Virus record (IMG/VR): IMGVR_UViG_3300022690_000584
Reading direction: 5' to 3' (one strand)
Source: a virus
DNA length: 47,488 bases
The notes beneath the pieces are model-generated. The model saw only the letters and a program-made list of their open reading frames with translations, searched no databases and had not been told where the DNA came from. Shown here piece after piece: positions 2,444 through 47,381 of the stretch. The position numbers were made by a program, and so were the translations under genes. Numbering within the stretch: the stretch's first letter is position 1; every line of letters starts with the position of its first letter.

Positions 2444-3643
2444 ATGGCTTTTGGTAGTCCATTAGATGGTTTGGCGGATTTTGAACCTTTAGAAAACGAA
2501 AGAAATATAAACCGAGAATCTGACTTTGATAACCAAACAGCTACAGATATAATATTGACGCCTGGTGTTTTTTATAAAATTGGAGCTAGCTTTTCAACAT
2601 CTAAAAAATTTACCACTCAGGGCGGAGTTATGGAGGGGCTTAGATCTGCGTCCATCATAACTTTTACTGGTTCCGGCTCAATGTTTACGAACACGGATGG
2701 AACATTTAGAATAAGTGATATCTTTATTGATTGCCCAGGCGCTACAGTTTTTGAATGCATTGGTGATGACACTGGAAATGTAGGGCATAGGGTAAATGCT
2801 ACAGGGGTAGTTGTCATAAGCTGCTTAAAAGTTATGACCTCTACAGGCGCAGGCGCACAAATTTTCGACTTGGTTCAAGTTGGTAATTTGATTGGTACTA
2901 CTGCTTTTTCATTTACAGGAACGTCCCCTGCAGTTGTTTTTAACTTTTCTCGTGTTGCTGTTTTTAACATGATAGCATCATCAATCGGTTTTGATTTTGG
3001 CTCTACTGTAGTAGAAGAAGTAGAAATCGGAAATGTTATTTTATCCGGAGATGCAACTGCTACGGCTATATCTGGTTTGCCTTCAAGCGGAAATATAACA
3101 CCTAACAATTTAGGGATGGTTGATAATTGTAACTTTTCAGATTTTACTACGCAGTTATCTGGTATTTCTGAGGATGATATAAGATGGCGGTTTAACGGTA
3201 ACGCTCAAATACCTAACTCAAAAGCCATAGGAATGGTTTCAGTTAACAATAATGTTACAGAAACCGCAATAACCACCATTAACACCCCTGTAAAAATGAA
3301 TGCTACATTCGTAACTGATGTAGCATCAGGTTTTATCGCTGACGGGACGGGAAGGTTGACATTCATTTCAGAAACAGACGAAAAGTTAGCTATAGACGGA
3401 ACAGCAACACTGCTGACAGCTTCTGGCGGTTCAGATACACAGGTGAGCTCGTATATTGCAATAAATGGAACAGAGGTTGACTCAACAGTGAAGCAAGGGA
3501 CGGCAACATCAACAAAGGCAGCACCTTTGTCTATGATTTGGGAGCATAACTTCACAAAAGATGATTTTATTGAAGTTTTTTTAGAGAACAATACTGGTAT
3601 GGTCAACTTGGTTGGGAAACAGGCCGTTTTAAGAATAAGATAG
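2444..3643 (+). CDS. Putative fibre/spike-like structural protein, paralog B
   Basis: 399 aa with the same architecture as 1144..2370. The C-terminus (YIAINGTEV...DDFIEVFLEN...AVLRIR) resembles a C1q/TNF-like jelly roll. Confidence 0.55.
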   Translation: MAFGSPLDGLADFEPLENERNINRESDFDNQTATDIILTPGVFYKIGASFSTSKKFTTQGGVMEGLRSASIITFTGSGSMFTNTDGTFRISDIFIDCPGATVFECIGDDTGNVGHRVNATGVVVISCLKVMTSTGAGAQIFDLVQVGNLIGTTAFSFTGTSPAVVFNFSRVAVFNMIASSIGFDFGSTVVEEVEIGNVILSGDATATAISGLPSSGNITPNNLGMVDNCNFSDFTTQLSGISEDDIRWRFNGNAQIPNSKAIGMVSVNNNVTETAITTINTPVKMNATFVTDVASGFIADGTGRLTFISETDEKLAIDGTATLLTASGGSDTQVSSYIAINGTEVDSTVKQGTATSTKAAPLSMIWEHNFTKDDFIEVFLENNTGMVNLVGKQAVLRIR

Positions 3644-3729
3644 CTTTATAATATTGCATTTTATTTGAATGATTATTGATTTGATAATATGGTACAATTG
3701 CAATAATGAACAAATAGGAATAAATCGAC

Positions 3730-4113
3730 ATGGCATTATTTACAGTAAACAAGCCGCTTGACGCGATATCAACCGACATAAGCGCAAACATTCTTGATTT
3801 GAATGCTGCACCTCATACTTTTGTCACGACAAATTTTAAACAGATTCTATGGATTGAGAATAATGAAGCTGTTCCGTTAACCATTACGGTGTTGGGCCAA
3901 GGTGTTACGGTTGCTAATTGCCCTGGCATTGGTTCTGTAACTTTGGCTTCGATAAGTAATAATGTAATAGTCGTTGCTGCTGCTGCTACTGTTGCCATCA
4001 GTGTACAATTGCTTTCTAGTTATATGGGTGCTACTGGCACAACCGTTGATGTGACTGTTGCTGGATCAACCGCACCTTCATTGGCGTTTGCATGGCTGAA
4101 TGATTACAGCTAA
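3730..4113 (+). CDS. Hypothetical beta-rich protein
   Basis: AGGA upstream of the ATG. It is the last ORF of the cassette and is followed by a strong bidirectional terminator. Confidence 0.5.
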   Translation: MALFTVNKPLDAISTDISANILDLNAAPHTFVTTNFKQILWIENNEAVPLTITVLGQGVTVANCPGIGSVTLASISNNVIVVAAAATVAISVQLLSSYMGATGTTVDVTVAGSTAPSLAFAWLNDYS

Positions 4114-4487: not shown

Positions 4488-5263
4488 TATTTAACTACCC
4501 ATTTAACGCCAGGAATGTCACCGTTAATAATAGTTTTCAATAGCCCTTTAGGTGATAGCCCGTCAAGCATTAAGCAACTCATGGCGCTAACAGCAGTATC
4601 AATAGCTAGTTCTTTATCTGTTTTTGTTTCGATTGGTTTGTGAATAACACGACTACAACAATTTTCTATGAATGCTATTTCACCAAAAACCTTAGTTTTA
4701 AAGCACAAAATACCATCGCCAATATATGTTATTACTGCTTCGTCATGATGCACTCTATCCTTTGAATCGCTGTCTATAATTATGTTTGATATCATACCGA
4801 CAACAGGGTTTTCACCAGCTTCTTTCATTTCTTTGGTGTAGATTGGTTTTTTAATTTTTAATGGTGGTGGATCTCTATTTATAAACATATCAAGCTTACG
4901 CTCACCATCAATAAGTTTTTTACCTAAACCGTTTACACCGTTTCGCTCATTTAACCAAACTTTCTGCTCAGCCAAATAAATCTCATATAGTGCTTTTATG
5001 TTTGGTTTCCATTTTTCTAAGTAGTTATAACCATCACCAACAGGCCACCCATGACCGTATGCATTAAGCCCATCTGATTCGCGTCCATTTTTATACGTTG
5101 CAATAACAGGCACCCAATCAGCAACAGGCTGCTCACCTGTGTTTTCTCTGTCTGCGAATGAGACTATGAATGTTTGTTCATCAAAGCAAACCCAGTTATC
5201 AGAGCTTATTGTTTTTATGCCTTTATCTTTCAACCAGTCAGTTGGCACTCTAATGTCACTCAT
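4487..5263 (-). CDS. Hypothetical protein (258 aa), middle gene of the antisense cassette
   Basis: Long ORF translationally coupled to both neighbours. No domain recognised. Confidence 0.6.
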   Translation of the reverse strand: MSDIRVPTDWLKDKGIKTISSDNWVCFDEQTFIVSFADRENTGEQPVADWVPVIATYKNGRESDGLNAYGHGWPVGDGYNYLEKWKPNIKALYEIYLAEQKVWLNERNGVNGLGKKLIDGERKLDMFINRDPPPLKIKKPIYTKEMKEAGENPVVGMISNIIIDSDSKDRVHHDEAVITYIGDGILCFKTKVFGEIAFIENCCSRVIHKPIETKTDKELAIDTAVSAMSCLMLDGLSPKGLLKTIINGDIPGVKWVVK

Positions 5264-5523
5264 GATCTAACCACCAAAACAGCAATAATCATTGAAATAA
5301 ATCCAAGTATTGGAAATAACACACTCTTAGCTAACTGCATATACCTGTACTTATCAGATTTCAAGTCAATAGGATTTTCTGATAAAAGCTCTTCAAGTGT
5401 TCTTTGTGATAGCACTAAATTGCCATCATCTAACCAGTAAACTTTATTACCTGCCCCTTTTATATAAAAAAGAGTGCCAAGTTTATAATCTGCTGCTGGG
5501 TTTTGATTTGTTTGGTTATTCAT
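5260..5523 (-). CDS. Hypothetical C-terminally membrane-anchored protein
   Basis: Start placed at the internal ATG (5523) because AAGGA lies 7 nt upstream. The C-terminal TM segment is VLFPILGFISMIIAVLVV. Confidence 0.5.
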   Translation of the reverse strand: MNNQTNQNPAADYKLGTLFYIKGAGNKVYWLDDGNLVLSQRTLEELLSENPIDLKSDKYRYMQLAKSVLFPILGFISMIIAVLVVRS

Positions 5524-5575
5524 AATTATTCCTTTTAATTGATTTCCTAAACACAATACAACACTTAAACGTAAC

Positions 5576-7939: not shown

Positions 7940-8337
7940 AAATATTAAAAGACAACATGAAGCGCACATTCAAAGATATTAGTGATAAAAAAGCGCCTCA
8001 GTTTGTTAGTGCTGTTTTGTCTATTGGTGAAAATCATTCTAAGGAATTGGCACCTGTTGCTTATTCTTTTTTGATAAATAATATAATAAAAGATTTAAAT
8101 GTTTCTGGCAGTAAAGTTACCGGAACTTTAACTTATGCTCAAAATTATGCCGCTGCATTGGAATTCAGAACTGATTGGAAACCTAAGCCACCACCAAAAT
8201 ATGGCAATAAGAAAAAAGGTATTGCACCGGCACCAGCTTGGAATCCAAACGCTACGCCTCATTATCTTAAGCGGGGTTTCGAAGATCAAGAGAGCCAAGC
8301 GCTGATTAAAAGAGTTGAGGGGATATTCAAGATATGA
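7915..8337 (+). CDS. Putative HK97 gp10-like neck/tail component
   Basis: The motif ...TLTYAQNYAAALEF resembles the YA..vEfG signature of the HK97 gp10 family. The start is ambiguous (7903 or 7915). Confidence 0.45.
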   Translation: MPVNKAKLKILKDNMKRTFKDISDKKAPQFVSAVLSIGENHSKELAPVAYSFLINNIIKDLNVSGSKVTGTLTYAQNYAAALEFRTDWKPKPPPKYGNKKKGIAPAPAWNPNATPHYLKRGFEDQESQALIKRVEGIFKI

Positions 8338-8780
8338 GCACAATAGCAGATTTAGAAGTCAAACAACTTGAAGATCACTTAACTTCTGGAGGCTTCTTTG
8401 CACCTTTTACTGATATTTTAGGAAATAATCAGCCAGCGCCAACATTCCAGTCGTTCGAATTAGATTTAACCAATGGAACGGTTGACCGTAATGAGCGAGT
8501 TATCATGATCCGAAACTCTGGAAATATAACAGCTTCAACCCGAACATTTTTCAAAGAAAGATTTATGTTAGTTTTAGTTGTTGGCCGTGTTGGTGAAAGT
8601 GATCGCGTTATTGTCAATGGACTCGCCGAAGATATAGAAGATTATTTAGTTAAAAACTTCTCTGATGGTGCATGTATTGCCAATATTGTTAGCTCAGGTG
8701 TAAGTCCTACATTCATCACCGAAGATGGTCGCCGGGCGTTTGAAATAAATATTACTGTAATGTTTAATATTATTCGTTGA
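8334..8780 (+). CDS. Putative tail completion/terminator protein
   Basis: It is the last gene before the major tail gene, with an ATGA overlap upstream. Called from position only. Confidence 0.35.
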   Translation: MSTIADLEVKQLEDHLTSGGFFAPFTDILGNNQPAPTFQSFELDLTNGTVDRNERVIMIRNSGNITASTRTFFKERFMLVLVVGRVGESDRVIVNGLAEDIEDYLVKNFSDGACIANIVSSGVSPTFITEDGRRAFEINITVMFNIIR

Positions 8781-8957
8781 CATTGTGTTTAATGTGTTTT
8801 ATATTTAAGTTGATTTTAAGTGTAACTATATAGTCTGTATACAAGAGTGAGTTAGTGTTTAATTCCTGCAACGCGTTAAACAGCATAATACCTACCTTGC
8901 AAGCTAGTTCACTTTTTATACAGATTATAACGCAAGTATTTTACATTTAGATTTTAA

Positions 8958-8985
8958 TTGACGCTAGGAAAGACTAGAATATAAT
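8958..8985 (+). promoter_or_regulatory. Near-consensus sigma70 promoter
   Basis: TTGACG (8958-8963), 16-nt spacer, TATAAT (8980-8985), with an AT-rich tract upstream. Confidence 0.6.
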
Positions 8986-9108
8986 TAACCTCTCGTTCAC
9001 ACATTGAAACATCGTGTGGGATTTACTGGTAAATCGACTGAGCAGGACACTCGGGGTATTTGAAAAGCCATTGGTACTATTTTACCACCAGTAAATTATA
9101 ACTATTAC

Positions 9109-9187
9109 ATCGACGTACGCAAATTGGTAATCCGCCGACTAAGCGTTATGCCGGTATTTGCAGGTTCGAGTCCTGCCGTCGATACCA
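9109..9187 (+). tRNA. tRNA-like element / possibly degenerate tRNA (anticodon not assignable)
   Basis: Perfect 7-bp acceptor stem (ATCGACG with CGTCGAT). D-arm CGCA-AATTGGTAA-TCCG with one mismatch. Canonical T-arm GCAGG-TTCGAGT-CCTGC. Discriminator A and an encoded CCA. No canonical 5-bp/7-nt anticodon arm can be drawn from the 25 nt in between. Confidence 0.45.
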
Positions 9188-9342
9188 AATTCATGAAGTA
9201 TCAAGCAGTGTTAGCGATGCCCTAGTTAACATTAAAAATCTGCCGTAAAAGCCGGTTTGAGGAGCCATTATTTTAAATAAGAATATTAGAGTTTCAATTG
9301 CTCTACAAAATGGTAGGTTTACCGATATTTTTATTATAATCA

Positions 9343-9368
9343 AAACCCTCTTAATTGAGGGTTTTTTA
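9343..9368 (+). terminator. Rho-independent terminator
   Basis: AAACCCTC-ttaatt-GAGGGTTT followed by a T-run. Confidence 0.8.
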
Positions 9369-9430
9369 TTACCCACAATTCCATGCTACAATACTATCGA
9401 ATTAATTATAAATTACTCGGAGCATAAAAC

Positions 9431-9919
9431 ATGGCGATTTGTAGCACTTCCACAAATAACCCAGGCAAAAACGTTGCTGTCGAATTCGCTATTGGTTGTG
9501 GCGATGATGATTTTTTAACTAACACTTACAAACCACTAGGAACGATAAACGCTAAGGATTTAACTTTTGCTGCTGTTGAAACTGACAATACCAATGATCT
9601 ATCTGGCTCTACATCTTCATCAATTATAGTTAGAACTAGCTTCGATTTAACGGTTGCTGGTTTTACAACTAATGTCGATTCTGCAACTTCTGCGCAAAAC
9701 GAATTAGTAACTTATTACTTTGCTGAGCTCCAAGCAGGAAGACAACCAACCGTCTGGATAAAAATATCTGGCCCAAACTACCCTAGAACCTGGCATATTT
9801 TTATGAATTACAAAGGCGGCGGGGAAGGGTTTGGCACTGATGATCTGCAAAGTATCTCATTTGACTTTAGTGTTACCGATACGGGCACGGCAATTAATAA
9901 CGCAGTAAACTTAAGTTAA
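9431..9919 (+). CDS. Major tail (tube) protein
   Basis: 162 aa with GGAG upstream. It lies immediately before the chaperone and tape measure genes. Called from position and composition. Confidence 0.6.
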   Translation: MAICSTSTNNPGKNVAVEFAIGCGDDDFLTNTYKPLGTINAKDLTFAAVETDNTNDLSGSTSSSIIVRTSFDLTVAGFTTNVDSATSAQNELVTYYFAELQAGRQPTVWIKISGPNYPRTWHIFMNYKGGGEGFGTDDLQSISFDFSVTDTGTAINNAVNLS

Positions 9920-22797: not shown

Positions 22798-23040
22798 ATG
22801 AAAGCAATAAAAATTGAAAATACCGATCTTATAAATAAAATAAGAACTGACTATATGATGAACCAAATTTACCGCATGGCAAGTCAAGAGGGTATTGGAG
22901 AAAAAGCTATGCTTATAAAGGCCGTTATTTGCCTACTAAATTTAAAAGAAGAAGCTTTCCAAGAAAAGGTTGATGAATTAATGAGACGTCCTAGCAATAA
23001 AATAATGGAACAATTTAACTTAACAACTAAAGATAATTAA
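22798..23040 (+). CDS. Hypothetical protein
   Basis: AAGGAA upstream of the ATG. Its stop overlaps the convergent gene's stop (TTAA). Confidence 0.5.
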   Translation: MKAIKIENTDLINKIRTDYMMNQIYRMASQEGIGEKAMLIKAVICLLNLKEEAFQEKVDELMRRPSNKIMEQFNLTTKDN

Positions 23041-24014
23041 CCAACCAACAAAAGCTTATCACGCCGCTTAGCCATACGGTCAAGTAAATCCTGCTGCAAA
23101 ACTTCTCCAGTCTTTTTATTAACTAGGACTGGTGATTGCGAGCAAAGGCAATTAATAGCGTTACCATTCCTAGCGTAAAACTCTCTAACCTCATCAGTGG
23201 TATATGTTCTGCCATGCCTTTTTATATGAACTATCCTTGATGTAGGAGCCAAAGCACTAAACCAAAGCGATAGCATACCCCACTCAGAATCACCATAAAC
23301 ATCTTCGTTAAGTTCATCAGTCTCAACGCCACCAGCCGTTCGGTATGAATTTAATATTTCAGTTCTAGCTATTCTTTGGGCACGATTAAAGCTTACTTTA
23401 ACTCGTTCAGTGATGTTTTTACTTAATTCTCGTACACCAATACCATCAATCATGCCTCTTGCTAAAGTATTGGATAAGTCAGCCCTAGTTGAGTCTGACA
23501 GCCCTTTCATAGATTCAAAGGTTCGTGCCTGAACAAGTCCGACCCGCTTTTGAAATCCCCGGCTAAAAATTATCGAATCTAATCGTATTAATCGCATGTC
23601 TCTTGATAGTTCAGGGTCAACAGCCTCAACCGTAGCTATATTTTTAGATGACTGCAGTACGTCACTAGTACCATCTTCATAAGCCTGGGTAAGGTTGGTA
23701 TTTAACCACCACCTTTGAGTAAAAAAACCACTAGGGTTATCAAGTAATTCGTCATTTAAAAGCTCTTGAATGAACGTGTTTATGTTTTGAAATCGAGCAA
23801 CATCAATTTGATATTCATATTTTATATTTGCGGATATTACACGTTTATCAAGGGTGCCAATTAATTGGCGCATACCTTTATCGATACGTAGATACCTTGC
23901 AACAAGCTTTCTTTTTGCGCCTCGGATATTATTAAACTGTGCAGCAGGATCGGCAGCGTTACGCGGTACAATTGGATTGCCTATGTCACTTTTCCGTAAT
24001 GAATTAATTTTCAT
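23037..24014 (-). CDS. Head morphogenesis protein (SPP1 gp7 / Mu F-like)
   Basis: It lies immediately downstream of the portal gene with an 11-nt overlap. The motif RIARTEILNSYRTAG is typical of the Mu F family. Confidence 0.7.
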   Translation of the reverse strand: MKINSLRKSDIGNPIVPRNAADPAAQFNNIRGAKRKLVARYLRIDKGMRQLIGTLDKRVISANIKYEYQIDVARFQNINTFIQELLNDELLDNPSGFFTQRWWLNTNLTQAYEDGTSDVLQSSKNIATVEAVDPELSRDMRLIRLDSIIFSRGFQKRVGLVQARTFESMKGLSDSTRADLSNTLARGMIDGIGVRELSKNITERVKVSFNRAQRIARTEILNSYRTAGGVETDELNEDVYGDSEWGMLSLWFSALAPTSRIVHIKRHGRTYTTDEVREFYARNGNAINCLCSQSPVLVNKKTGEVLQQDLLDRMAKRRDKLLLVG

Positions 24015-25428
24015 TAAAAGGGCCGCTACTTGGATTCAGATCATCCTCTCCAAATTCTTCTAGACTACCAAGTACTTCTATTTCACCTTCATGACCAGAA
24101 GTTTTTAGCATTAACTCATCTGAAAATAAAGGTGCTTTCCTTCCTGAGTTAAATCTTCTTTCGTTGATGTTTTCCATTTTATCAGCTAAGTCTAATTTAT
24201 CACTTGAAGAATCTTCTTGTAGATCATCCCAGGTAACTTTAATTTCATCGTCAGGCTCACGAACAACGCCTATTTTGATTAAATATTTTAGGAAGCCAAT
24301 AATAATAGCTGGGGTAATAAAGTTTTCACGGCGACTAGTTGCTGTTTCATTGAATGCTGTTTCATTGCCAGTACTAGCCTGTTTATTCATTTGTACGCCT
24401 ATTAACTCACTTGCTGGCGTATTTATTGATGATGCATAAACGTTTAATGAATTGGTAAATGGTTGAGTTGGATCGGCTAATGTTGATTGTAAAGTGTGAA
24501 TATCCATACCGTAAATAGTTAAGTTTGGCGAGTCGCCACGATTGAAATTATCAACATTTTCATCGTAGGTTGCTTTAAACTTCTCATCCTTCAATGCCTG
24601 AGCAACTTGATTGTCATTTACATTTGTAATAAATCTTTGCTTTGAATTCTTCCTCAAACCAGTTTGACCACTGGCGCAAATTATTTCAAGATCCATTAAA
24701 GCATTAAATCCTGCTTCATTAGCTGGTATGCCAAAAATGCTACCATCGTCGGCACCTTCAGCAACAGGAAATACACGACTGGGATCTAATCGTATTTGCT
24801 TATTATCAATTGGATTTCTGTCACCAAAAACCTCTTCACGCAAGTTATAATGTGAAGGCATCCCATAATCAGCACTATTTATATCTGAATTTGTTCCAAC
24901 ATCGGTAACATCAACTTGTGATTCAAACTTAGGTACTAATTTTATTAATGCCTCTACGCTGTTTACTTTTGTTATTGGCTTATCAGGATCGTTTGATTCT
25001 TGCTCTTTAACTACCGGTAAAATAACTGCATATCGGCCAACGCGCTGACGCCAATCAACACCCTTTAGCCTAGCAAATAAGAAATGTTTTTCTATTAATA
25101 CTGCAACATCTTGCTCGAATGGTGTTAACGCGCGATCACCATCTTTTTCACCATCTGTGATGATAGGGTTACTTTGCCAACACTTATCAACAATTTTATG
25201 AATACCGGCATGAGCAATACCGAATCTTGATTGCATATTCCAGTGATCACCAAAATTTAGTAATTTTGGATAACCTGCAGAAGACCAATAATCAATATTT
25301 GTATTTGAATTATGATATGTTCCTGTTAGGTGATATCCGAACATAGAACTTCGTCTATTACCAGAAAAACCTCTTCCATCTGTATTGGCTAGTAATTTCT
25401 TCGCACGCTTTTGTTTTTTACTCGGCAT
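24004..25428 (-). CDS. Portal protein
   Basis: 474 aa, upstream of the MuF-like gene, with an acidic C-terminus. Size and pairing are typical of DUF1073-type portals. Confidence 0.65.
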   Translation of the reverse strand: MPSKKQKRAKKLLANTDGRGFSGNRRSSMFGYHLTGTYHNSNTNIDYWSSAGYPKLLNFGDHWNMQSRFGIAHAGIHKIVDKCWQSNPIITDGEKDGDRALTPFEQDVAVLIEKHFLFARLKGVDWRQRVGRYAVILPVVKEQESNDPDKPITKVNSVEALIKLVPKFESQVDVTDVGTNSDINSADYGMPSHYNLREEVFGDRNPIDNKQIRLDPSRVFPVAEGADDGSIFGIPANEAGFNALMDLEIICASGQTGLRKNSKQRFITNVNDNQVAQALKDEKFKATYDENVDNFNRGDSPNLTIYGMDIHTLQSTLADPTQPFTNSLNVYASSINTPASELIGVQMNKQASTGNETAFNETATSRRENFITPAIIIGFLKYLIKIGVVREPDDEIKVTWDDLQEDSSSDKLDLADKMENINERRFNSGRKAPLFSDELMLKTSGHEGEIEVLGSLEEFGEDDLNPSSGPFNEN

Positions 25429-39787: not shown

Positions 39788-40064
39788 AATATTAATTGGC
39801 GGTCGTGGATCAAGTAAAAGACCAGAGGTAAGGTTTAAATCTGGTGCATATGTTGATTGGAATGAATTAGATGATGTTGGTTCTGTGGTTGGCTTGAAAC
39901 CAGAATGGGCTACGCACATTTCACAAACTCGTGCTGGTGATATGGTTTGGCTTAATACCGATAACGGCAAGACGAAATTTATAAATAGCGATAGAGTCGT
40001 TGAGCTGCCGTTGAGTAATTACTTGTTTAGAAGGAGTAAGCCAATACCGGAAAGCTGGAATTAA
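39780..40064 (+). CDS. Hypothetical protein between the terminase subunits
   Basis: Start placed at 39780, which has AGGAGA upstream. The N-terminus VKILIGGRGSSK echoes the TerL Walker A segment. Confidence 0.5.
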   Translation: MVKILIGGRGSSKRPEVRFKSGAYVDWNELDDVGSVVGLKPEWATHISQTRAGDMVWLNTDNGKTKFINSDRVVELPLSNYLFRRSKPIPESWN

Positions 40065-41458
40065 TGGCCTCGTTAAACCCAAATCTAAAATCATTCTGGA
40101 AAACAAAAGCTGATGTAAAAGTATTAAAAGGCGGTCGTGCAAGCTCTAAAACATGGGACTGTGCAGGATTCGCCATTTTTTTGGCGTCTAGGTATAAAGT
40201 TAAATTCCTATGCATGCGCCAATACCAAAATAAAATCAAAGAATCTGTCTATGCAATACTGAAAATTCAAATCGAACGTTTCGGACTTTCCGAAGAGTTC
40301 GAAGTTTTAGCATCTGAAATAAAGCATAGAACCACTGGTTCATCGTTTCACTTCTACGGTATACATCGTGACATTGCTGAGATAAAAGGCTTTGAGGGTG
40401 CTGACATTGGATGGATTGAAGAGGGTGAAGGTCTAACTAAAGATCAATGGACAGTTATTGAACCAACAATACGCGCAGAGGGTGCGGAGTGCTGGATACT
40501 GTACAACCCAAGGTTAGTCAGTGATTACGTTGAGACATTCAAGCATGACCTTGATAACGGCGTCCTTGTTCGCCAAATAAACTACGATGAAAACCCATTC
40601 CTATCAAATACCATGCTTCGTAAAATAGCCAGGATGAAAGACCAGGACTATGAAGAGTACGAACACATTTATCTTGGCATACCAAAAGCCGATGATGATG
40701 ATGTGGTTATTAAAAGGTCCTGGATAGAAGCCGCTATTGATGCTCATATTAAGTTAGGAATTGAACCATCAGGCAGTCATAGGATAGGATTCGACGTTGC
40801 TGATGGTGGTAAGGATTTATGCTCACAGATACATGCGCATGGGATAGTTGCCTTATGGGGTGAGCACTGGAAAGCTAAAGAGGATGAGCTAGATGAAAGT
40901 TGTGCAAGGGTTTACAATCGCGCTTTTGGTTTTAATGCTGAGATTGATTATGATTCTATTGGTGTTGGTGCTGGTTGCGGTCCATTGTTTAGAAAGCTTA
41001 ATGAATCTCGTCAGCATGAAAATGGCTACATTCAGGTCAAATACAAAAAATTCATAGCCGGCGCTGGCGTTATCGACCCTGGCGGGTATTACATTGATGC
41101 CGGAGATGAAAAGACAACCAATAAAGATTTCTTCGAAAACCTAAAGGCTCAATCATGGTGGATGGTGGCTGATAGGTTTAGAAACACTTACAATGCGGTA
41201 ATAAAAGGCACTGCGTTTGACGAATCTGAACTTATTAGTATTAGCTCTGATATGGCAAACTTAGGAAATTTGGTTACTGAGCTTTCGACGCCTAGAAGAA
41301 GATTTAGCAAATCCGGTAAAGTTATGGTTGAAAGTAAGGAAGAATTGAAGAAACGTGAAGTGGATTCCCCCAATGATGCAGATGCATTTATTAATGCTTT
41401 CTCACCCAAAGAGAGTAACGGCGCCATGGACTTAATGTTTCAGTCTAATTTGAATTAA
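40064..41458 (+). CDS. terL: Terminase large subunit
   Basis: Walker A-like VLKGGRASSKTW, Walker B IGWIEEGE, and a C-terminal nuclease-like half (GFDVADGG...). Confidence 0.9.
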   Translation: MASLNPNLKSFWKTKADVKVLKGGRASSKTWDCAGFAIFLASRYKVKFLCMRQYQNKIKESVYAILKIQIERFGLSEEFEVLASEIKHRTTGSSFHFYGIHRDIAEIKGFEGADIGWIEEGEGLTKDQWTVIEPTIRAEGAECWILYNPRLVSDYVETFKHDLDNGVLVRQINYDENPFLSNTMLRKIARMKDQDYEEYEHIYLGIPKADDDDVVIKRSWIEAAIDAHIKLGIEPSGSHRIGFDVADGGKDLCSQIHAHGIVALWGEHWKAKEDELDESCARVYNRAFGFNAEIDYDSIGVGAGCGPLFRKLNESRQHENGYIQVKYKKFIAGAGVIDPGGYYIDAGDEKTTNKDFFENLKAQSWWMVADRFRNTYNAVIKGTAFDESELISISSDMANLGNLVTELSTPRRRFSKSGKVMVESKEELKKREVDSPNDADAFINAFSPKESNGAMDLMFQSNLN

Positions 41459-41480
41459 AGCCGCTGTTGCGGCTTTGTTT
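41458..41480. terminator. Rho-independent (bidirectional-type) terminator
   Basis: AAGCCGC-tgtt-GCGGCTT followed by TGTTT, between convergent genes. Confidence 0.7.
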
Positions 41481-41483
41481 AGC

Positions 41484-41672
41484 TTAACGATGACTTACAT
41501 CACCGTTAACTGTAAAATTTATATTTCCAGTTAATTCGATATTTCCAGTTAATTCTACATCTTGAACAACCCCGTCAATAATTACCTTTCCATCTGTAAT
41601 TAACACGTTATTACCTCGAAAGTTTTTACCATCGATAACAACCGTTCCTGGGTCGTTCATTGTTAATTTCAT
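41484..41672 (-). CDS. Small beta-helix-repeat protein (bactofilin-like pattern)
   Basis: Periodic G/V/I/N pattern (VVIDGKNFRGNNVLITDGKVIIDGVVQDVELTGNIELTGNINFTVNGDV). AAGGAAA upstream of the ATG. Confidence 0.4.
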   Translation of the reverse strand: MKLTMNDPGTVVIDGKNFRGNNVLITDGKVIIDGVVQDVELTGNIELTGNINFTVNGDVSHR

Positions 41673-41715
41673 GTTATTTCCTTTTAATACGCCCTTGCGG
41701 GCTGTTTGTTTGGTT

Positions 41716-42444
41716 TTATTTATTTATAACAACCAGCATAGTTGAAATATTAGTTCCGCTCTCTTTAAATGCACCTTGTGGTATTTCTTCAGTATATGAA
41801 TCAACAGAACTTAACCATTCGCGGAATGATATTTGTTTTTTCTGACTTCCATGGACCCAGCTTTTACTCATAATAGAAACAAGTAAGCCACCTTCATGTA
41901 AAAACTTGTACATGTGCAATACGTGATCAACATCCTGATTTTTTGTAAATGGCGGATTTGCCACTATCCTTTTATATTTTATATGTTCTTCCGGATTAAT
42001 ATTAAGAAAATCTAACGGTGTTAATTCTTTTTCATATTTTCTATTTAACACTTTTATGTTTTCTGGCATTAATTCGATCATACTAGCGTGAGCGCCAAGC
42101 TCAACAATTCCATCAACAATAGCCCCTTGTCCTGCGCTAGGCTCAAGAACTAACATATCAGAATGAATACAAGCATGATTCATTAGTAAATCAACAACAC
42201 CTGAAGGAGTAGGGAAAAATTGAAACTTCTTTTTATCGTTAATTACTTCACCACCGACAAGCCTAGACTGTACAATAGATGCATCTTCAGAGAACTCAAA
42301 CCCACATTTTTTATACTTTCCACCAGCAGTAATTAAACATTTCTTTACCTGACTATAGTTATCAAACTGTTCATCTTTAGGTAATTCCAAACGATTACCA
42401 TTAACTGTCATTTTTTTTATTGAATTTATTAAATCTTCTTTCAC
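41716..42444 (-). CDS. SAM-dependent DNA N6-adenine methyltransferase
   Basis: Motif I VLEPSAGQGAI and motif IV IVANPPF. Confidence 0.75.
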   Translation of the reverse strand: MKEDLINSIKKMTVNGNRLELPKDEQFDNYSQVKKCLITAGGKYKKCGFEFSEDASIVQSRLVGGEVINDKKKFQFFPTPSGVVDLLMNHACIHSDMLVLEPSAGQGAIVDGIVELGAHASMIELMPENIKVLNRKYEKELTPLDFLNINPEEHIKYKRIVANPPFTKNQDVDHVLHMYKFLHEGGLLVSIMSKSWVHGSQKKQISFREWLSSVDSYTEEIPQGAFKESGTNISTMLVVINK

Positions 42445-42472
42445 GGTATTTCCTTTTTAATTATCTCGTTTC

Positions 42473-42574
42473 GTTGTGTTTATTTAACAACCCCAACATT
42501 AAACACAACAAACCCAAATGTAAAGAACTATTTAGCTATTGTGTTTAAATGATTGTTGTGGTAGATTGTGTTTA
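42473..42574. promoter_or_regulatory. Divergent control region with four copies of the TAAACACAA[TC] motif
   Basis: GTTGTGTTTA 42473, TAAACACAAC 42500, ATTGTGTTTA 42538 and 42565. Confidence 0.5.
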
Positions 42575-42600
42575 GTTAAATTACTTAGGAATGAAGAAAT

Positions 42601-42885
42601 ATGAATAAATTAAAAATAATACAAATACAAGCAATGTTAAATGATGAGTATTGGCAAGGTGTTATTCTTGGTTTGGGTAATGACGGTGTTACTTATCAAT
42701 ATGACGGGTCAGGATGGAGCGTATATGCACCAGCTATAGATATGTCTCACTCTGAAAGCCAAGGTGATGAAGAACATGAAAGAATTGATGTATTCCAAGA
42801 GATGAACATCAATGAAATACCAACGGTTTTAAATGGTATGTTGAGCGCATTAACAACCACTAAACATAAGGGGCAGCAAAGATGA
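42601..42885 (+). CDS. Hypothetical protein
   Basis: AGGAATGAAG upstream of the ATG. It is the first gene of a rightward operon. Confidence 0.5.
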   Translation: MNKLKIIQIQAMLNDEYWQGVILGLGNDGVTYQYDGSGWSVYAPAIDMSHSESQGDEEHERIDVFQEMNINEIPTVLNGMLSALTTTKHKGQQR

Positions 42886-43094
42886 CCTGCGACTACTGTA
42901 AAGAACCATCTAAATACCAATTACAAAATGGAGAGAGATTTTGTGAATTATGCATTAAAAAGAAGTCAGTAATTTTAACAATAGACAAATGCATAGAATA
43001 CTTAACTAAAAATAAAACACAAATTAGTGAAGAGCAAAGTACTAAGTTGTCTATGCTGTGGGTAGATTCAGAATTGAAACATATTGAACCCTAA
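42882..43094 (+). CDS. Hypothetical zinc-ribbon mini-protein
   Basis: CDYC...CELC. ATGA overlap with the upstream gene. Confidence 0.5.
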   Translation: MTCDYCKEPSKYQLQNGERFCELCIKKKSVILTIDKCIEYLTKNKTQISEEQSTKLSMLWVDSELKHIEP

Positions 43095-43114
43095 ACTTAA
43101 AGAGGAATAAGATA

Positions 43115-43360
43115 ATGGAAGTTAAATTTATAGAAAAATACACAAAGCTAGGCGATATCAAAGAAGGGCAAGTTGCAGTTTCAAAGGACAGAAAAGAGTT
43201 CTTTGTATGCTGCTACTATTGGTGTGCTACTTTAAAATTAAATAAGAAAATCATAATAAACTTAAATTATTTATCTAACAACCAGTACACGGAAACTTTA
43301 GATTTAGAGCAGCTAGTAAAGATACTAAAGAGAGGAGATAAGTTTGTTTGTGAAGTTTAA
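43115..43360 (+). CDS. Hypothetical protein
   Basis: AGAGGAA upstream of the ATG. Confidence 0.5.
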   Translation: MEVKFIEKYTKLGDIKEGQVAVSKDRKEFFVCCYYWCATLKLNKKIIINLNYLSNNQYTETLDLEQLVKILKRGDKFVCEV

Positions 43361-43374
43361 CAAGGAATAAACAA

Positions 43375-43584
43375 ATGTCAGATATATTTGAAATAGTTAA
43401 AAAGCTAAGAAATAAGGAGAATGTTATAATCCCTAATAACTATTCTTTTACAGTGATGCAACAAATACAAGATCACGCTGATGAAATAGGATATTTAGAA
43501 CCCATTAAATTTAAGCCTTACGACGATAAACACACTTTATTGACGTTAGATATTCAAACTAAACAGATAACACCTGGTAACTAG
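43375..43584 (+). CDS. Hypothetical protein
   Basis: AAGGAA upstream of the ATG. Confidence 0.5.
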   Translation: MSDIFEIVKKLRNKENVIIPNNYSFTVMQQIQDHADEIGYLEPIKFKPYDDKHTLLTLDIQTKQITPGN

Positions 43585-43612
43585 TAATTAAAATAAGGTA
43601 AAGGTAAATAAG

Positions 43613-43900
43613 ATGAAACACAACATTGAAAAAATAATACCTGAGAAAAAAGTTACGGTAGTTGATTTTAAAACTTGTGATATATGTAAAAGACCTGACA
43701 GAGCCAGTACTTCAAGAGTTGATACATGTGATTTAGACAATGTCGAGATAGAGTATAACGATGTAGAATGTAGATATCCTGAATGCGGTAGTGGTGAAAA
43801 ATACATTTATGACATATGTGAGGAATGCTTTAAAGAAAAAGTTATACCGGCTTTATGTGCACTTGGCGCTGAACCATCCATAGAACCGTGGGACTACTAA
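43613..43900 (+). CDS. Hypothetical zinc-ribbon protein
   Basis: CDIC...CRYPEC...CEEC. AAGGTAAAGG upstream of the ATG. Confidence 0.5.
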   Translation: MKHNIEKIIPEKKVTVVDFKTCDICKRPDRASTSRVDTCDLDNVEIEYNDVECRYPECGSGEKYIYDICEECFKEKVIPALCALGAEPSIEPWDY

Positions 43901-43917
43901 CAAATAAGGTAAATAAT

Positions 43918-44127
43918 ATGAGCGAGAAAACAGAAATATCACCCATAGGATTATTCTTTTCAATACTGGCACTGATTATATTTACATTTTTAGCATATAA
44001 AATAACAGGTGAAAGTATTTTGCTGTCAATATTAATTGGTCCAATTGTAGCTGCATCAGCTTGTCGTCCAGCAAATACAGAATATGGCAATAAGTATTTT
44101 ATGTGGATGCGAGATAAGAAACCATAA
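43918..44127 (+). CDS. Small two-TM membrane protein with a basic C-terminus (holin-like topology)
   Basis: Start placed at 43918 (AAGGTAAA upstream); the ORF could begin at 43888. Hydrophobic segments GLFFSILALIIFTFLAY and ILLSILIGPIVAASA, tail RDKKP. Confidence 0.45.
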   Translation: MSEKTEISPIGLFFSILALIIFTFLAYKITGESILLSILIGPIVAASACRPANTEYGNKYFMWMRDKKP

Positions 44128-44157
44128 ATTAACCTAAATAAAAAACCATGCTATACT

Positions 44158-44184
44158 AGCCCCAATCAACAAAGGGGCTTTTTC
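44158..44184 (+). terminator. Terminator-like hairpin abutting the next start codon
   Basis: AGCCCC (44158-44163) pairs with GGGGCT (44174-44179), then TTTTC, then ATG at 44185. Confidence 0.55.
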
Positions 44185-45885
44185 ATGCCACAGAAAATAT
44201 TAAAAAGAAAAGCGTTACACCTTAATTCAAGTCTTACCGCAAACGCTATTATCACCAATAAAGAGGTCTACGGGGCCAACCATATCGTCATTGAGGGCGC
44301 TGGCTCTATCATTGCTGATACTGTGATGAATGGCATCTTTTACCCGAGAGATGAAGTTATAGCCCTTGCAAATCGAACGAAAGCAGATATTCATGCACCA
44401 TCAGGTCATCCAGTCGATGAAGATGGTAACTTTATTAGTGCCGGTCACCCCATGGCAACCCAGCAAAATTTTATCGGCGCCATAAGTAATAATTACCGAA
44501 TGAATGGTGATCGACTTGTCCGGGATATCTCAATAAACCCTGAAATTGCTAATCGATTTTCTGATGGCAAGGAAATAATTCGTCGCATAGAAAACGAAGA
44601 GGATACCGATACGTCAACCGGTTTATTGCTTCAATTAGAAGAGAAAAGCGGCGTTGGCAATGATGGGGAACCATTTAAGTTTATAGCGCGAAATATGGAG
44701 CTAGACCATGACGCTATATTGATTAAAGAACGTGGTGCGGCAACATCATTACAAGGTGTTGGCATGTTTGCCAATGCAAAAGGTGATGAGTTCACCGTTG
44801 ACGAATACACAATTAACGCATCAATACCAGCCATGAATTTATCTTTGGCACCGAACGATTTCGTATGGAATGAGTCGGAAGCACTAGCCAGAATTAAAGA
44901 GTTCACCAACAGCAAAGATAAGCCGAGCTCAAACTTCCGTAGATTCTTCCTAAACTTCGACCAGTCAAATGTCGATTCGTTTGATAGCTACACCAATTTG
45001 TTTGCTGATGTTATTAATGGTGTGCCACATGCCGTAAAAGCACCAATAGAAGCTGTAAAAAATAACGTTAATGCAACGGCTTATAATGAGAGGTTTGTTA
45101 ACAATAAAGATGGTGTAATCTCAAAAGCATGGAATGTAATTAAATCTATATTCATGAGTAATAAAGATTTAAGCCATAGTGATATCGAAAATAAAATACA
45201 TGAAAAGCTAAACGAAGGTCGTACAGGTGATATACGTCACCTATGGCCCATGGAGATATTCGACACCAAGTTTGTTTATAGGTCCGATAATGATACACTG
45301 TTCATGCAATCATACGCTTTGGTAGATGATGATGTGGTTTTCATTGGAGAGCGCACAGAAGTCGAACGTGTGGTAGAATTTAAAACAGTTAGTAACAACA
45401 ACGGAGATCGCATTATGCGTGAGAAAGTCATTAAGGCATTAAATGCCGCAAATGTAAACATAGAAGGCTTAGACGATGATGCGATCTTTGCAAAATTTGA
45501 AAGCCTTAATAAACAGGATGACGAAAATTTGACTGAGGAAGAAATCCTCAAGAGAAAAAAGGAGAAGGGCAAAGGTAAAAAGTCTGAACATAATAGTTTG
45601 ACTTTGGACGATATCACAGCAGTCGTGAACGCAGCTATTAAACCTCTTCAAGATAAGATAGACGCTAATACCGACAAAGAACTAGATAACCTAGTTGAGC
45701 AAGTCGAAAAACTTGATATAGGGATCAGCAAAGAAGCTGCTAAAACTATGGGTGTAAATTCATGTAAAGATGTTTTAGCCAAAAATGGTGTTACTGCTTT
45801 TAATAGTTCTGGCGGCTATACTCAACATAATAATTCAGAAGACGGGTGCTCAACCCTGACTCTTCCAACTTCGGTTAAGGAGTAA
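44185..45885 (+). CDS. Putative prohead protease/scaffolding protein (DUF2213-like N-terminus, coiled-coil charged C-terminus)
   Basis: 566 aa, directly upstream of the decoration-like and capsid genes. The C-terminal ~150 aa are helical and highly charged. Confidence 0.5.
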   Translation: MPQKILKRKALHLNSSLTANAIITNKEVYGANHIVIEGAGSIIADTVMNGIFYPRDEVIALANRTKADIHAPSGHPVDEDGNFISAGHPMATQQNFIGAISNNYRMNGDRLVRDISINPEIANRFSDGKEIIRRIENEEDTDTSTGLLLQLEEKSGVGNDGEPFKFIARNMELDHDAILIKERGAATSLQGVGMFANAKGDEFTVDEYTINASIPAMNLSLAPNDFVWNESEALARIKEFTNSKDKPSSNFRRFFLNFDQSNVDSFDSYTNLFADVINGVPHAVKAPIEAVKNNVNATAYNERFVNNKDGVISKAWNVIKSIFMSNKDLSHSDIENKIHEKLNEGRTGDIRHLWPMEIFDTKFVYRSDNDTLFMQSYALVDDDVVFIGERTEVERVVEFKTVSNNNGDRIMREKVIKALNAANVNIEGLDDDAIFAKFESLNKQDDENLTEEEILKRKKEKGKGKKSEHNSLTLDDITAVVNAAIKPLQDKIDANTDKELDNLVEQVEKLDIGISKEAAKTMGVNSCKDVLAKNGVTAFNSSGGYTQHNNSEDGCSTLTLPTSVKE

Positions 45886-45888
45886 ATC

Positions 45889-46326
45889 ATGGCTGATAAA
45901 GGCAAAAGATTAATATTCTCCGATGGTGAGACTTTAAATGCTACCGAAGGTTTAGCGGCTGATGGCACAATAAAACCTGGTATGTCAGTTCTTCACACTG
46001 CTACCACAATTGCAAGAAGTACCAATGCTAGTACTGTTTTCGGTTATCCACATTTATTTGCTGATTACGATATGTTGCACGGCAGAACGGTTGATGATTT
46101 GTGGGTATCTGGTGACACCTTAATTGCTCGTGAATTAACCCAGGGTAAAAAAGCAAACCTTATAGTTACCGCTGTTAATTCTACAGCAAGGGGTATTGCG
46201 CTAACTTCAAACGGTGATGGCACGCTAAAGGTTGCTGACGTTGCTGATTTAGATTATGTGTTAGCATATACAGACGAAATTTTAAACATTGCAGGCGTTG
46301 GCTTAATGCGCGTCAAAGGAGCTTAA
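45889..46326 (+). CDS. Putative head decoration / capsid accessory protein
   Basis: 145 aa between the scaffold-like and capsid genes. AAGGAG upstream of the ATG. Confidence 0.4.
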   Translation: MADKGKRLIFSDGETLNATEGLAADGTIKPGMSVLHTATTIARSTNASTVFGYPHLFADYDMLHGRTVDDLWVSGDTLIARELTQGKKANLIVTAVNSTARGIALTSNGDGTLKVADVADLDYVLAYTDEILNIAGVGLMRVKGA

Positions 46327-46328
46327 TC

Positions 46329-47381
46329 ATGATTTTTGACACAGCAATATGCCAAGGTAATGCAGCAGACCTTAGAGCTATGGCAGCTCAATATGCATAC
46401 GTAAACGCTCAGCGAGATGATCCGCGTCATGCGCTACCACTTAGTATGTTTGCAAACTCAGGCACTAAACCGCTTGATTTATTCCGTGAATGGGATAATC
46501 AAACAGTTGCACAATTCAGACTTGATGAAGGTGATAATATTCTAAATCGTTTATTGCCACTATCACGATCTACAAATATTGGGCGAACTGTTTTAGAAAA
46601 TGCGCGCGCTTCTGATGCGGGTGATTTTACACAATCAATGAGTGGTGAAGAGGGATCTCGCTACGACAATGTTGATTACGATTTAAATCAAACAATTATT
46701 CCTGTAGGTCTGAATGGATATAAGCGTAATTGGCGTGAAAACCAACAGTTGAATCTTGAAGACTTTAACGATGCATCAAACCAGCAACGTGAAGCCGTTC
46801 GAACACACAGACAAGGTGTTATCGGTACATTCATGGATGGGCATAAAAACAAAGATGGTCAATTTATTGTTGAAAAGGGATCTCAGTGGCAGGGCGTTAG
46901 AGCTGACAGTCGTGTTGATCAAATTGATTTAGGTGCAGGTGGTTTAAATGTTGATTTAACATTGTCAACAACTACAGGTACATCAATTTTTAATGCTTTC
47001 CTTGAGATGGCACGTATTAGAGCTGTTGATAATAAGGTTTCTGCAGGTGCTATTTATTTCGTATCGCCAACAATATTTTTCAACTTGATGCGCGATTTTG
47101 CTACTGAATTTAATGGCAAGTCCATTAAAAACAAAATCATGGAAATTGAAGGCATTTTAGGTATTGAGATGACAAGTGTGTTAATTGGAAACCAAGTGCT
47201 TTCAATTCCGTTTCAAACTACATTTATTCAACCTGTGGTTGGTATGGGAGTTAGCACAATAGCCCGTTCTCGTCCTAATTGGAACGACCCATTTGCATTC
47301 GAAGTTGTTTCAGCTATCGGTTGGAATGTTAAGACCGACTTTGGATCAGCTAACCGCGCGCTTCAGTACGCATCAGATTAG
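46329..47381 (+). CDS. Major capsid protein
   Basis: 350 aa with AAGGAG upstream. Position and size are typical of an HK97-fold capsid gene following scaffold and decoration genes. Confidence 0.7.
   Translation: MIFDTAICQGNAADLRAMAAQYAYVNAQRDDPRHALPLSMFANSGTKPLDLFREWDNQTVAQFRLDEGDNILNRLLPLSRSTNIGRTVLENARASDAGDFTQSMSGEEGSRYDNVDYDLNQTIIPVGLNGYKRNWRENQQLNLEDFNDASNQQREAVRTHRQGVIGTFMDGHKNKDGQFIVEKGSQWQGVRADSRVDQIDLGAGGLNVDLTLSTTTGTSIFNAFLEMARIRAVDNKVSAGAIYFVSPTIFFNLMRDFATEFNGKSIKNKIMEIEGILGIEMTSVLIGNQVLSIPFQTTFIQPVVGMGVSTIARSRPNWNDPFAFEVVSAIGWNVKTDFGSANRALQYASD

Follow-up and report, generated by a model that had tools for sequence, protein, structure and literature searches.

What occupies the 650 nucleotides (nt) between the tail-terminator gene and the major tail protein gene in the phage of IMG/VR virus record IMGVR_UViG_3300022690_000584, where the neighbouring reading frames leave a gap at positions 8781-9430? 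The window, that is, the whole stretch of DNA analysed, has 47,488 nt and is essentially the whole phage genome of about 47.5 kilobases (kb), with a guanine + cytosine (G + C) content of about 37%. A preliminary description of this DNA recognized a noncoding unit from a promoter to a terminator inside the gap and left two readings side by side: a phage-encoded stable RNA, or a leader in which read-through of the terminator gates tail gene expression. The answer proposed here, with a little better than even confidence, is that the gap carries an autonomous RNA-only moron, a unit of the transfer RNA (tRNA)-operon type whose transcript would be cut by the tRNA-processing enzymes of the host to give a conserved small RNA and a tRNA-like RNA unable to decode. 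As to its kind, the stable RNA reading finds support: the tRNA-like element does exist, a homologue in the related locus L062 keeps its acceptor and T stems by compensatory changes, and a covarying RNA motif common to unrelated phages lies just 3' of it.

This motif, called module A, is a three-helix element of 73 nt on the plus strand (9190-9262) and begins 3 nt after the CCA of the tRNA-like element. It opens with a palindrome, TTCATGAA (9190-9197), and an invariant block, AAGTATCAAG (9196-9205), after which helix H0 (9206-9208 with 9240-9242) encloses the hairpin H1 (9209-9231) and an A-rich linker (9232-9239), and a second hairpin, H2 (CCG-TAAAAGC-CGG), follows at 9243-9255. Nine distinct phage sequences carry it, namely the window, the related loci L060 and L062, and six unrelated IMG/VR loci found by exact-word pattern scans. 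Their structural alignment has the layout of an invariant AAGUAUCAAG, an H0 of 3-5 base pairs (bp) whose first pair is always Y-G and which encloses H1 and the linker, and an H2 hairpin (NCG-UAAAAGC-CGN) directly abutted by the 3' strand of H0. In this alignment, which was fitted to the structure though H0 and H2 are anchored to the invariant blocks, all 71 helix cells of the nine sequences are paired, against 40.4 ± 3.1 in column shuffles, and not one of 20,000 shuffles reaches 71. In a model-made alignment, 98.1% of H0 and H2 is paired against 75.6 ± 4.1 after shuffling (0 of 500), and these two helices show 13 double-sided changes against 3.7 in shuffles (again 0 of 500). Slid controls give 5-46%. 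The covariation of H0, H1 and H2 points to a constraint on a folded strand, most simply RNA.

Module A is a new motif with no counterpart in Rfam 15, and in unrelated phages it is found repeatedly next to tRNA genes. The covariance model R1, run on 41 loci (281 kb), gave 55-83 bits for the members and at most 17 bits for everything else, and detected no divergent copies in L058, L059, L065, L066, L002 or phage T4. When Rfam was applied to the loci that carry module A, only tRNAs reached the gathering score, the other matches being plastid untranslated-region models antisense to tRNA genes (33-34 against 66-68 bits), and the long non-coding regions that hold module A gave no Rfam match to known ribozymes, riboswitches, ROOL/GOLLD or group I introns. 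The whole gap has no DNA similarity among 50,697 cultured phage genomes, and when the same search was relaxed to an expectation value (E) of up to 10, phage tRNAs matched the T-arm/acceptor part only and module A matched nothing; a literature search for the motif strings returned only chance primer or barcode matches. As to its neighbours, module A fills the 88-nt space between tRNA-Phe and tRNA-Asp inside an array of 22 tRNAs in L068, a 302-kb contig, follows tRNA-Ser in L074 and an aberrant tRNA in L071 (identical to L073), follows a terminator-like hairpin in L069 and L072, and stands in L070 between baseplate genes on the strand opposite to them. The CCA end of a tRNA or tRNA-like element precedes it in 7 of the 9 members (in L062 the tRNA-like body ahead of module A is not resolved), and the window, L060 and L062 have ACCA-AA-TTCATGAAGTATCAAG... 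in common directly after the CCA.

The palindrome at the head of module A remains symmetric while its letters change: it is TTCATGAA in six members, TTTGCAAA in L062 (231-238), TTCTTAAGAA in L072 (3740-3749) and TTCA-T-TGAA in L060 (2750-2758). It has too few letters to fold into a hairpin within one molecule. Dimerisation of the RNA is suggested, or else recognition of the DNA by a dimeric binding protein or an endonuclease. A micro open reading frame (ORF) beginning MKYQ... in module A was rejected, as it lacks its start in L062 and L072 and varies in frame and length, and pairing of the conserved 5' block with a target in the phage genome has no basis in the reverse-complement matches, which occur at chance frequency. 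Looser IMG/VR patterns (the 16-mer alone; a relaxed H2) gave 13 and 111 extra matches, none with both H0 and H2 pairing, and those inspected sit in apparent coding sequence and add no members. The family looks rare, or too divergent for exact words to reach.

The surroundings of module A in the unrelated loci contain other features of some interest. In L074 the motif starts a 613-nt non-coding stretch from tRNA-Ser to tRNA-Pro (643-1254), which looks GC-rich and highly structured, has no Rfam match and may be a larger RNA. L069 and L072 have in common an element of about 100 nt directly upstream of module A (3231-3345 and 3622-3735, respectively; 73% identity over 144 nt, an alignment that takes in the first bases of module A), which consists of a long closing helix, GGGTATTTAGAACTG / CAGTTTTAAGTACCC, and then a U run, and which may act as a terminator or form a stable RNA of its own. 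In L070, about 500 nt of GC-rich non-coding DNA (2900-3420) with a TTGACA-type site at its start and no Rfam match lies upstream of module A between the two baseplate genes, on the opposite strand. The array of 22 tRNA genes in L068 (3526-7708) has other long non-tRNA spacers at 4558-4669 and 5440-5532, and within it ARAGORN calls a tRNA with a 2-base anticodon at 3683-3758; further aberrant tRNA-like elements may be hidden in such arrays.

The tRNA-like module which the preliminary description placed on the plus strand at 9109-9187 is recognized by the Rfam tRNA family RF00005 over 9109-9184 in a focused scan of 701 nt, where it scores 32.3 bits (E = 8e-5; gathering score, 29). Read directly, it is ATCGACG/TA/CGCA-AATTGGTAA-TCCG/CCGAC-TAAGCGTTAT-GCCGG/TATTT/GCAGG-TTCGAGT-CCTGC/CGTCGAT/A/CCA, that is, an acceptor stem (9109-9115 with 9177-9183, 7/7 paired), a D arm (9118-9134) whose stem has one C.C mismatch and whose loop contains GG, an aberrant 'anticodon' arm (9135-9154) with a 10-nt loop and an A.C mismatch in the adjoining stem, a variable loop (9155-9159), a T arm (9160-9176, 5/5 paired, with a canonical T loop), a discriminator A (9184) and an encoded CCA (9185-9187). 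The 7-bp acceptor, the TTCRANY T loop, the GG of the D loop and the discriminator with CCA are those of a tRNA body; what is lacking is a normal anticodon arm, with a 5-bp stem, a 7-nt loop containing U33 and an anticodon that can be read. The element is therefore filed as tRNA-like and not as a tRNA, since it reaches the Rfam score and fails in the defining feature of the anticodon loop, and decoding is impossible because the loop that replaces the anticodon loop is expanded. ARAGORN with default settings reports no tRNA in the window, rejecting this element because its 'anticodon loop' has 10 nt, and under relaxed settings it forces either a tRNA-Asn(GTT) with a 3-nt 'intron' or, at an 80% threshold, a 4-base anticodon. 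A transfer-messenger RNA (tmRNA), one-piece or permuted, was rejected: neither ARAGORN (including relaxed thresholds on the gap) nor Rfam finds one in the window, and both acceptor strands lie within 79 nt.

The homologue in L062 (315-402) is 75% identical and scores 35.6 bits as an Rfam tRNA. Between the window and L062 the acceptor pair 2:71 changes from T-A to C-G, the first T-stem pair from G-C to A-T, and pair 4:69 from G-C to G-T, and not a single acceptor or T-stem pair is broken. The aberrant loop has 10 nt in the window and 22 nt in L062, with insertions and deletions and, in L062, a tandem duplication of ATAGCA; the two loops have TA.AGC...GT.TT.TG in common. This suggests from the comparison that the loop defect predates the split between the window and L062 and that the acceptor/T-arm half has been maintained since. 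The string AAGCGTTAT in the aberrant loop was considered as a functional 'loop motif' and rejected: 28 of its 32 carriers (31 IMG/VR loci and the window) are ordinary phage tRNAs, in which it makes up the 3' anticodon stem and the variable loop, so its frequency in real phage tRNAs points to tRNA ancestry instead of a motif.

Searches with the tail protein gave about 20 related loci of identical gene order, and the space between the two tail genes differs in each of them. It is empty in L061 and L064 (about 75-80 nt); in L067 it spans about 150 nt, with a hairpin resembling a terminator and no obvious cargo; it holds protein genes on the minus strand in L003, L004 and L005, plus-strand ORFs in L006, L011, L059 and L002, duplicated fragments of upstream genes in L001, and in L066 two genuine tRNA genes, Pro(TGG) at 58 bits and Asp(GTC) at 55 bits. 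Aberrant T-arm/acceptor elements without a normal anticodon arm occur in L058, L059, L060 and L062, which keep the encoded ACCA, and twice in L002, whose pair does not. At the left edge, TTGAC(A/G/T)T stands at the upstream stop codon in L001, L002, L011, L058, L059, L060, L063 and L066, the cargo-bearing loci with readable left junctions, and is absent from the empty slots of L061 and L064. At the right edge, relatives with plus-strand cargo end in a terminator hairpin, the terminator/promoter stretch aligning by BLAST among most of them, and L061 and L064 have no hairpin, whereas TGnTAYAAT lies about 40 nt before the ATG of the tail gene, downstream of the terminator, in all relatives with or without cargo. 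The terminator is therefore part of the cargo, which it insulates, and a separate promoter serves the tail gene; in the window this promoter is the extended -10 sequence TGCTACAAT (9384-9392, plus strand), outside the cassette. These relatives show that the gap is a variable cargo slot; a scan of Joint Genome Institute (JGI) metagenomes added three short contigs and no new cargo type.

Two of these slots deserve a further word. In L001, positions 3270-3715 consist of fragments of an upstream 118-amino-acid gene (3' end) and of the tail-completion gene (5' end) around an ORF of 82 amino acids, and the duplication stops exactly at the start of homology to window position 9285; this boundary indicates recombination at the T-arm-like hairpin found there. 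In L011 a GC-rich, apparently structured non-coding segment (2230-2520, GGGATAGGAGGGGCACCACCCCTCC...) has no Rfam match, and the ORF downstream of it has a hydrophobic N-terminus, a putative signal peptide.

The remaining anatomy of the gap agrees well with what the preliminary description had proposed. No credible ORF is present, the longest frames having 26-61 amino acids and all being without a ribosome-binding site, and in the parts shared with homologues no frame stays open throughout, each being interrupted by a stop or an indel in one homologue or more. The near-consensus sigma70 promoter was found as given: this site, P2 (8958-8985, TTGACG-16-TATAAT), matches at 11 of 12 positions and predicts a transcript start near 8992, and a second plus-strand site, P1 (8777-8805, TTGACA-17-TATATT, also 11/12), overlaps the stop codon of the tail-terminator gene at the left edge of the slot. 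Sites that match at 11 or more of the 12 positions number five on both strands of the whole window, whereas Markov shuffles contain 2.4 ± 1.6, and two of the five fall inside the gap. P2 is not seen in relatives. The spacer between P1 and P2 (8806-8957) contains no credible ORF. In the minimum-free-energy fold of the leader, the predicted CACAC/GTGTG helix appears as hairpin CACACA/CGTGTG (8997-9002 with 9014-9019), and the predicted long helix as an 11-bp helix (9020-9030 with 9087-9097) which closes an element (9020-9097) around three small hairpins. The leader has a fold z-score (z) of -2.3, and the whole transcript, 8990-9372 (383 nt), folds better than all shuffles (z = -3.8). In this predicted fold, the junction above the long helix is four-way and resembles a cloverleaf, and among its arms is a 5-bp stem with a 7-nt loop (CTGAG-CAGGACA-CTCGG).

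Downstream of module A, the orphan GAGGAG at 9259-9264 is present with no start codon behind it, and is probably a chance occurrence because it lies in the non-conserved tail of module A. Module B (9285-9330, plus strand) is 87% identical to L001 3716-3761 and comprises a T-arm-like hairpin, AGAGT-TTCAATT-GCTCT (9288-9304), and a hairpin GGTA-GGTT-TACC (9312-9323), whose stem is GGTA/TACC in the window and TGTA/TACA in L001, a compensatory difference. The TAGAG/CTCTA helix of the preliminary description is present at 9287-9305. The first of the two hairpins matches a T arm in size and loop pattern; together with its flanks ATTTT/AAAAT it could be a minimal acceptor/T-arm minihelix like those of L058 and L002, though it may be chance in AT-rich sequence. 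The strong intrinsic terminator (9342-9369, plus strand) likewise stood up, with a hairpin AAAACCCTC-TTAATT-GAGGGTTTT (9342-9365) and a U run (-12.8 kcal/mol, z = -4.6); it lies 62 nt before the major tail gene, and the terminator scanner missed the hairpin, probably as its greedy stem extension consumed the T run. In the focused gap scan no Rfam 15 family other than tRNA reached its gathering score, and the best of such matches overlap this hairpin (STnc370, 33 against 54 bits; rimP leader, 24 against 47 bits).

The comparisons above establish the anatomy, the slot, the conservation and the covariation; from these we infer transcription, processing and activity in trans as follows. The unit 8958-9369, probably also read from P1 at 8777, would give a primary transcript of about 380 nt with a structured leader, the tRNA-shaped RNA, module A, two more hairpins and the terminator. 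Host RNase P would cut at 9108/9109, and RNase E or 3' exonucleases would act in the conserved ACCA-AAUU junction, so that the tRNA-like RNA and module A would be released as separate stable small RNAs. The likeliest activity would be that of a tRNA mimic for enzymes which read the acceptor or elbow of tRNA, with module A as a conserved effector or partner RNA. A bolder proposal, which we regard as rather improbable, is that module A represents a new phage RNA class working with tRNA 3' ends and that the anticodon-less tRNA-like elements are selected mimics, the two together forming an RNA-only counter-defence that soaks up or misdirects immune nucleases of the host which read the acceptor, elbow or CCA tail and not the anticodon; alternatively, module A, with its symmetrically covarying palindrome, might act as a homodimer.

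A number of points weigh against the proposal of an RNA-only moron and should be set beside it. The RF00005 score exceeds the Rfam cut-off by only 3 bits, and the match is absent from scans of the whole window with standard or permissive filters. The thermodynamic z of the tRNA-like element (-1.5) and that of module A (-0.1) are unremarkable, and the evidence of selection on the former comes from two sequences only. The leader (8992-9108) and the stretch 8806-8957 have no homologue in any fetched locus, the leader helices being predicted folds. Module A is rare, being found in six distinct IMG/VR loci and in this phage lineage, it does not follow a tRNA in L069, L070 and L072, and its invariant blocks are partly an artefact of the search because exact-word patterns were used. 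The promoter, the processing sites and the stability of the RNAs are predictions from sequence.

The main rival of this proposal is a decaying remnant, in which ordinary tRNA genes would once have occupied the slot, the tRNA-like element would be a tRNA pseudogene whose anticodon loop was hit by an insertion and the flanking hairpins would be functionless debris of a tRNA array. This is unlikely, though to be taken seriously: genuine tRNAs occupy the same slot in L066, AAGCGTTAT in the aberrant loop hints at tRNA ancestry or recombination, the cargo is highly variable and dispensable, as the empty L061 and L064 show, both elements of L002 (TL1 and TL2) and that of L058 look truncated, and duplicated gene fragments lie in the L001 slot. 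However, the acceptor and T-stem changes between the window and L062 are compensatory or wobble-preserving and none breaks a pair, while the common flanks of the two loops suggest that the defect is older than those changes. In five relatives a T-arm/acceptor element persists although no normal anticodon arm goes with it, ACCA still being encoded in four of these, and covariation of module A across unrelated phages is not expected of debris. That the element is a working tRNA of an unusual kind, a frameshift or non-standard decoder or one whose extra loop bases are removed after transcription, is scarcely credible. Its body and encoded CCA are intact and relaxed ARAGORN can force an intron or a 4-base anticodon upon it, but the loops of 10 and 22 nt have no anticodon in common, the stem beside the loop has its A.C mismatch, and no short spliceable tRNA introns are known from bacteria or their phages.

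The two other rivals give the cassette a role in cis or at the level of DNA. The gate of the preliminary description, where read-through of 9342-9369 would set tail gene expression, resembles lambda pR'-tR' 6S and HK022 put in that a strong promoter, a brief stretch of structured RNA and then a terminator precede the late structural genes, and a strong terminator 62 nt before the major tail gene would block read-through from the upstream head-tail genes on the same strand. In those systems' terms, however, the present locus differs in that its leader shows no conservation, the cargo can be missing and changes entirely from one relative to another (tRNAs in L066, protein genes on the plus or the minus strand in others, none at all in L061 and L064), the hairpin travels with the cargo and is missing from the empty slots, and the downstream gene has in every relative an extended -10 promoter past the terminator; no Q-like or put-like element was identified, no dedicated model for either having been used. 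The conserved tail promoter after the terminator and the variable or empty slot remove the basis of the gate reading, which did not survive the comparison and is now very improbable indeed. Very unlikely too is a DNA element, either the core of a phage attachment site (attP) matching a host tRNA or a palindrome that serves as a homing-endonuclease or recombinase target and makes the cassette mobile. The slot behaves like a recombination hot spot with sharp junctions, the palindrome (TTCATGAA, TTTGCAAA, TTCTTAAGAA) keeps its symmetry through sequence change, and module A lies within structural gene modules of unrelated phages and adjoins a gene with a T5orf172 domain in L069; ORF5 inside the T4 tRNA cluster (record X03016), which we take to be the SegB homing endonuclease, also speaks for it. 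On the other hand, a search of 185,579 species, each represented by one genome, turned up no exact copy of the 25-nt 3' half of the tRNA-like element, its 21-nt core has no exact match in IMG/VR, no relatives of the tail gene were found in bacterial genomes and hence no prophages, and no integrase family was present among the 29 ORFs scanned, which are not every ORF. With no exact host copy, integrase or prophage relative, an attP role is unlikely (the host genome may be unsampled), and the covariation of H0, H1 and H2 is left unexplained by a protein-binding DNA site.

The RNA-only moron has its closest parallel in phage T4, where the order of tRNA subcluster II is tRNA-Arg, species 2 RNA (rnaD), species 1 RNA (rnaC) and terminator (record X03016). 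As there, small RNAs, here predicted to be stable and non-coding, stand directly after a tRNA or tRNA-like element and before the terminator. The RNAs of the window are co-oriented with the tRNA-like element, have tRNA-like 3' features and lie between promoter and terminator; in T4, CCA closes species 2, while species 1 contains an acceptor-like stem together with a canonical T arm (CCGGG-TTCGAAT-CCCGG), and the post-CCA junction ACCA-AAUU is the same in T4 and the window. The T4 RNAs RNAC and RNAD are both expressed late and their functions are still unknown (PMC9697503). The difference is that T4, a 169-kb myovirus, has a real tRNA cluster, whereas the present 47-kb genome of siphovirus type has one defective 'tRNA' as its sole representative, in a moron between tail genes. 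The resemblance is architectural, without sequence homology, and it is by this analogy that we infer processing here. With E allowed up to 10, R1, which models module A alone, does not match the T4 tRNA region (L199). At its 5' end, species 1 of T4 (L199, X03016, 1802-1840, AAUUAUCGAUUCGAGGAAAUAUCUUUGCCGUAAGCCGAG) contains a loose echo of the blocks of module A (palindrome, GAAGUAUC, GCCGUAAAAGCCGG). This region (GAAAUAUC...GCCGUAAGCCGA) was rejected as a copy of module A: the helices are missing, the H2 pairing among them, and R1 gives it no score.

Other RNAs bear on the proposed mechanism or activity. Small RNAs such as mascRNA on MALAT1 and 3'ETS-leuZ of E. coli exemplify tRNA-like processing handles and spacer-derived small RNAs. 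The cassette would be like them in proposed mechanism only, in that a tRNA-shaped module would recruit RNase P and 3' enzymes and so set the ends of its neighbour RNA; it has no sequence relation to them. Phage tRNAs have been proposed to counter host nucleases that target tRNA (PMC10264068, PMC11555353, PMC12851939, PMC13056530), and some of them to escape host anticodon nucleases through changes in the anticodon loop (PMC10264068; PMC11555353). The present element is like real phage tRNA genes in its tRNA-shaped body, its encoded CCA and the concentration of changes in the anticodon loop, and unlike the published escape tRNAs, which have a 7-nt loop and a working anticodon, in its loop of 10 nt (22 nt in L062). 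By analogy, a role as mimic or decoy is conceivable for RNAs which keep only the acceptor/elbow half.

As for the genomic setting, both genes that flank the slot are on the plus strand. The tail-terminator gene (8334-8780) belongs to phrog_782, the versions in relatives carrying Pfam Phage_tail_terminator_3, and the major tail protein gene (9431-9919) to phrog_853. The large terminase is 75% identical to its counterpart in Vibrio phage 1.210.O, and the phage brings a primase, helicases and an exonuclease of its own. Genes for the portal and for head morphogenesis (23037-25428) are on the minus strand beside the replication genes, apart from the plus-strand terminase, capsid and tail genes (40064-47381 and 1-21048), which is an unusual split of the structural module.

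What is new in this locus is the module A motif, and what is of a known kind is its membership among T4-like, tRNA-associated stable RNAs. Current work connects phage tRNA genes with escape from immune systems that target tRNAs, and the non-tRNA stable RNAs that accompany these genes have been without a function since T4 species 1 and 2 became known. A single slot which holds real tRNAs, tRNA-like elements reduced to acceptor and T arm, or nothing offers a natural series for testing what use the tRNA body has, and module A is a compact covarying RNA motif that can be synthesised and tested directly. ARAGORN and Rfam, at their default filters, are silent on this locus, so annotation passes over cassettes of this type. 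If true, the counter-defence or dimer reading of module A would also point to a role, open to experiment, for species 1 and 2 of T4, after decades without one.

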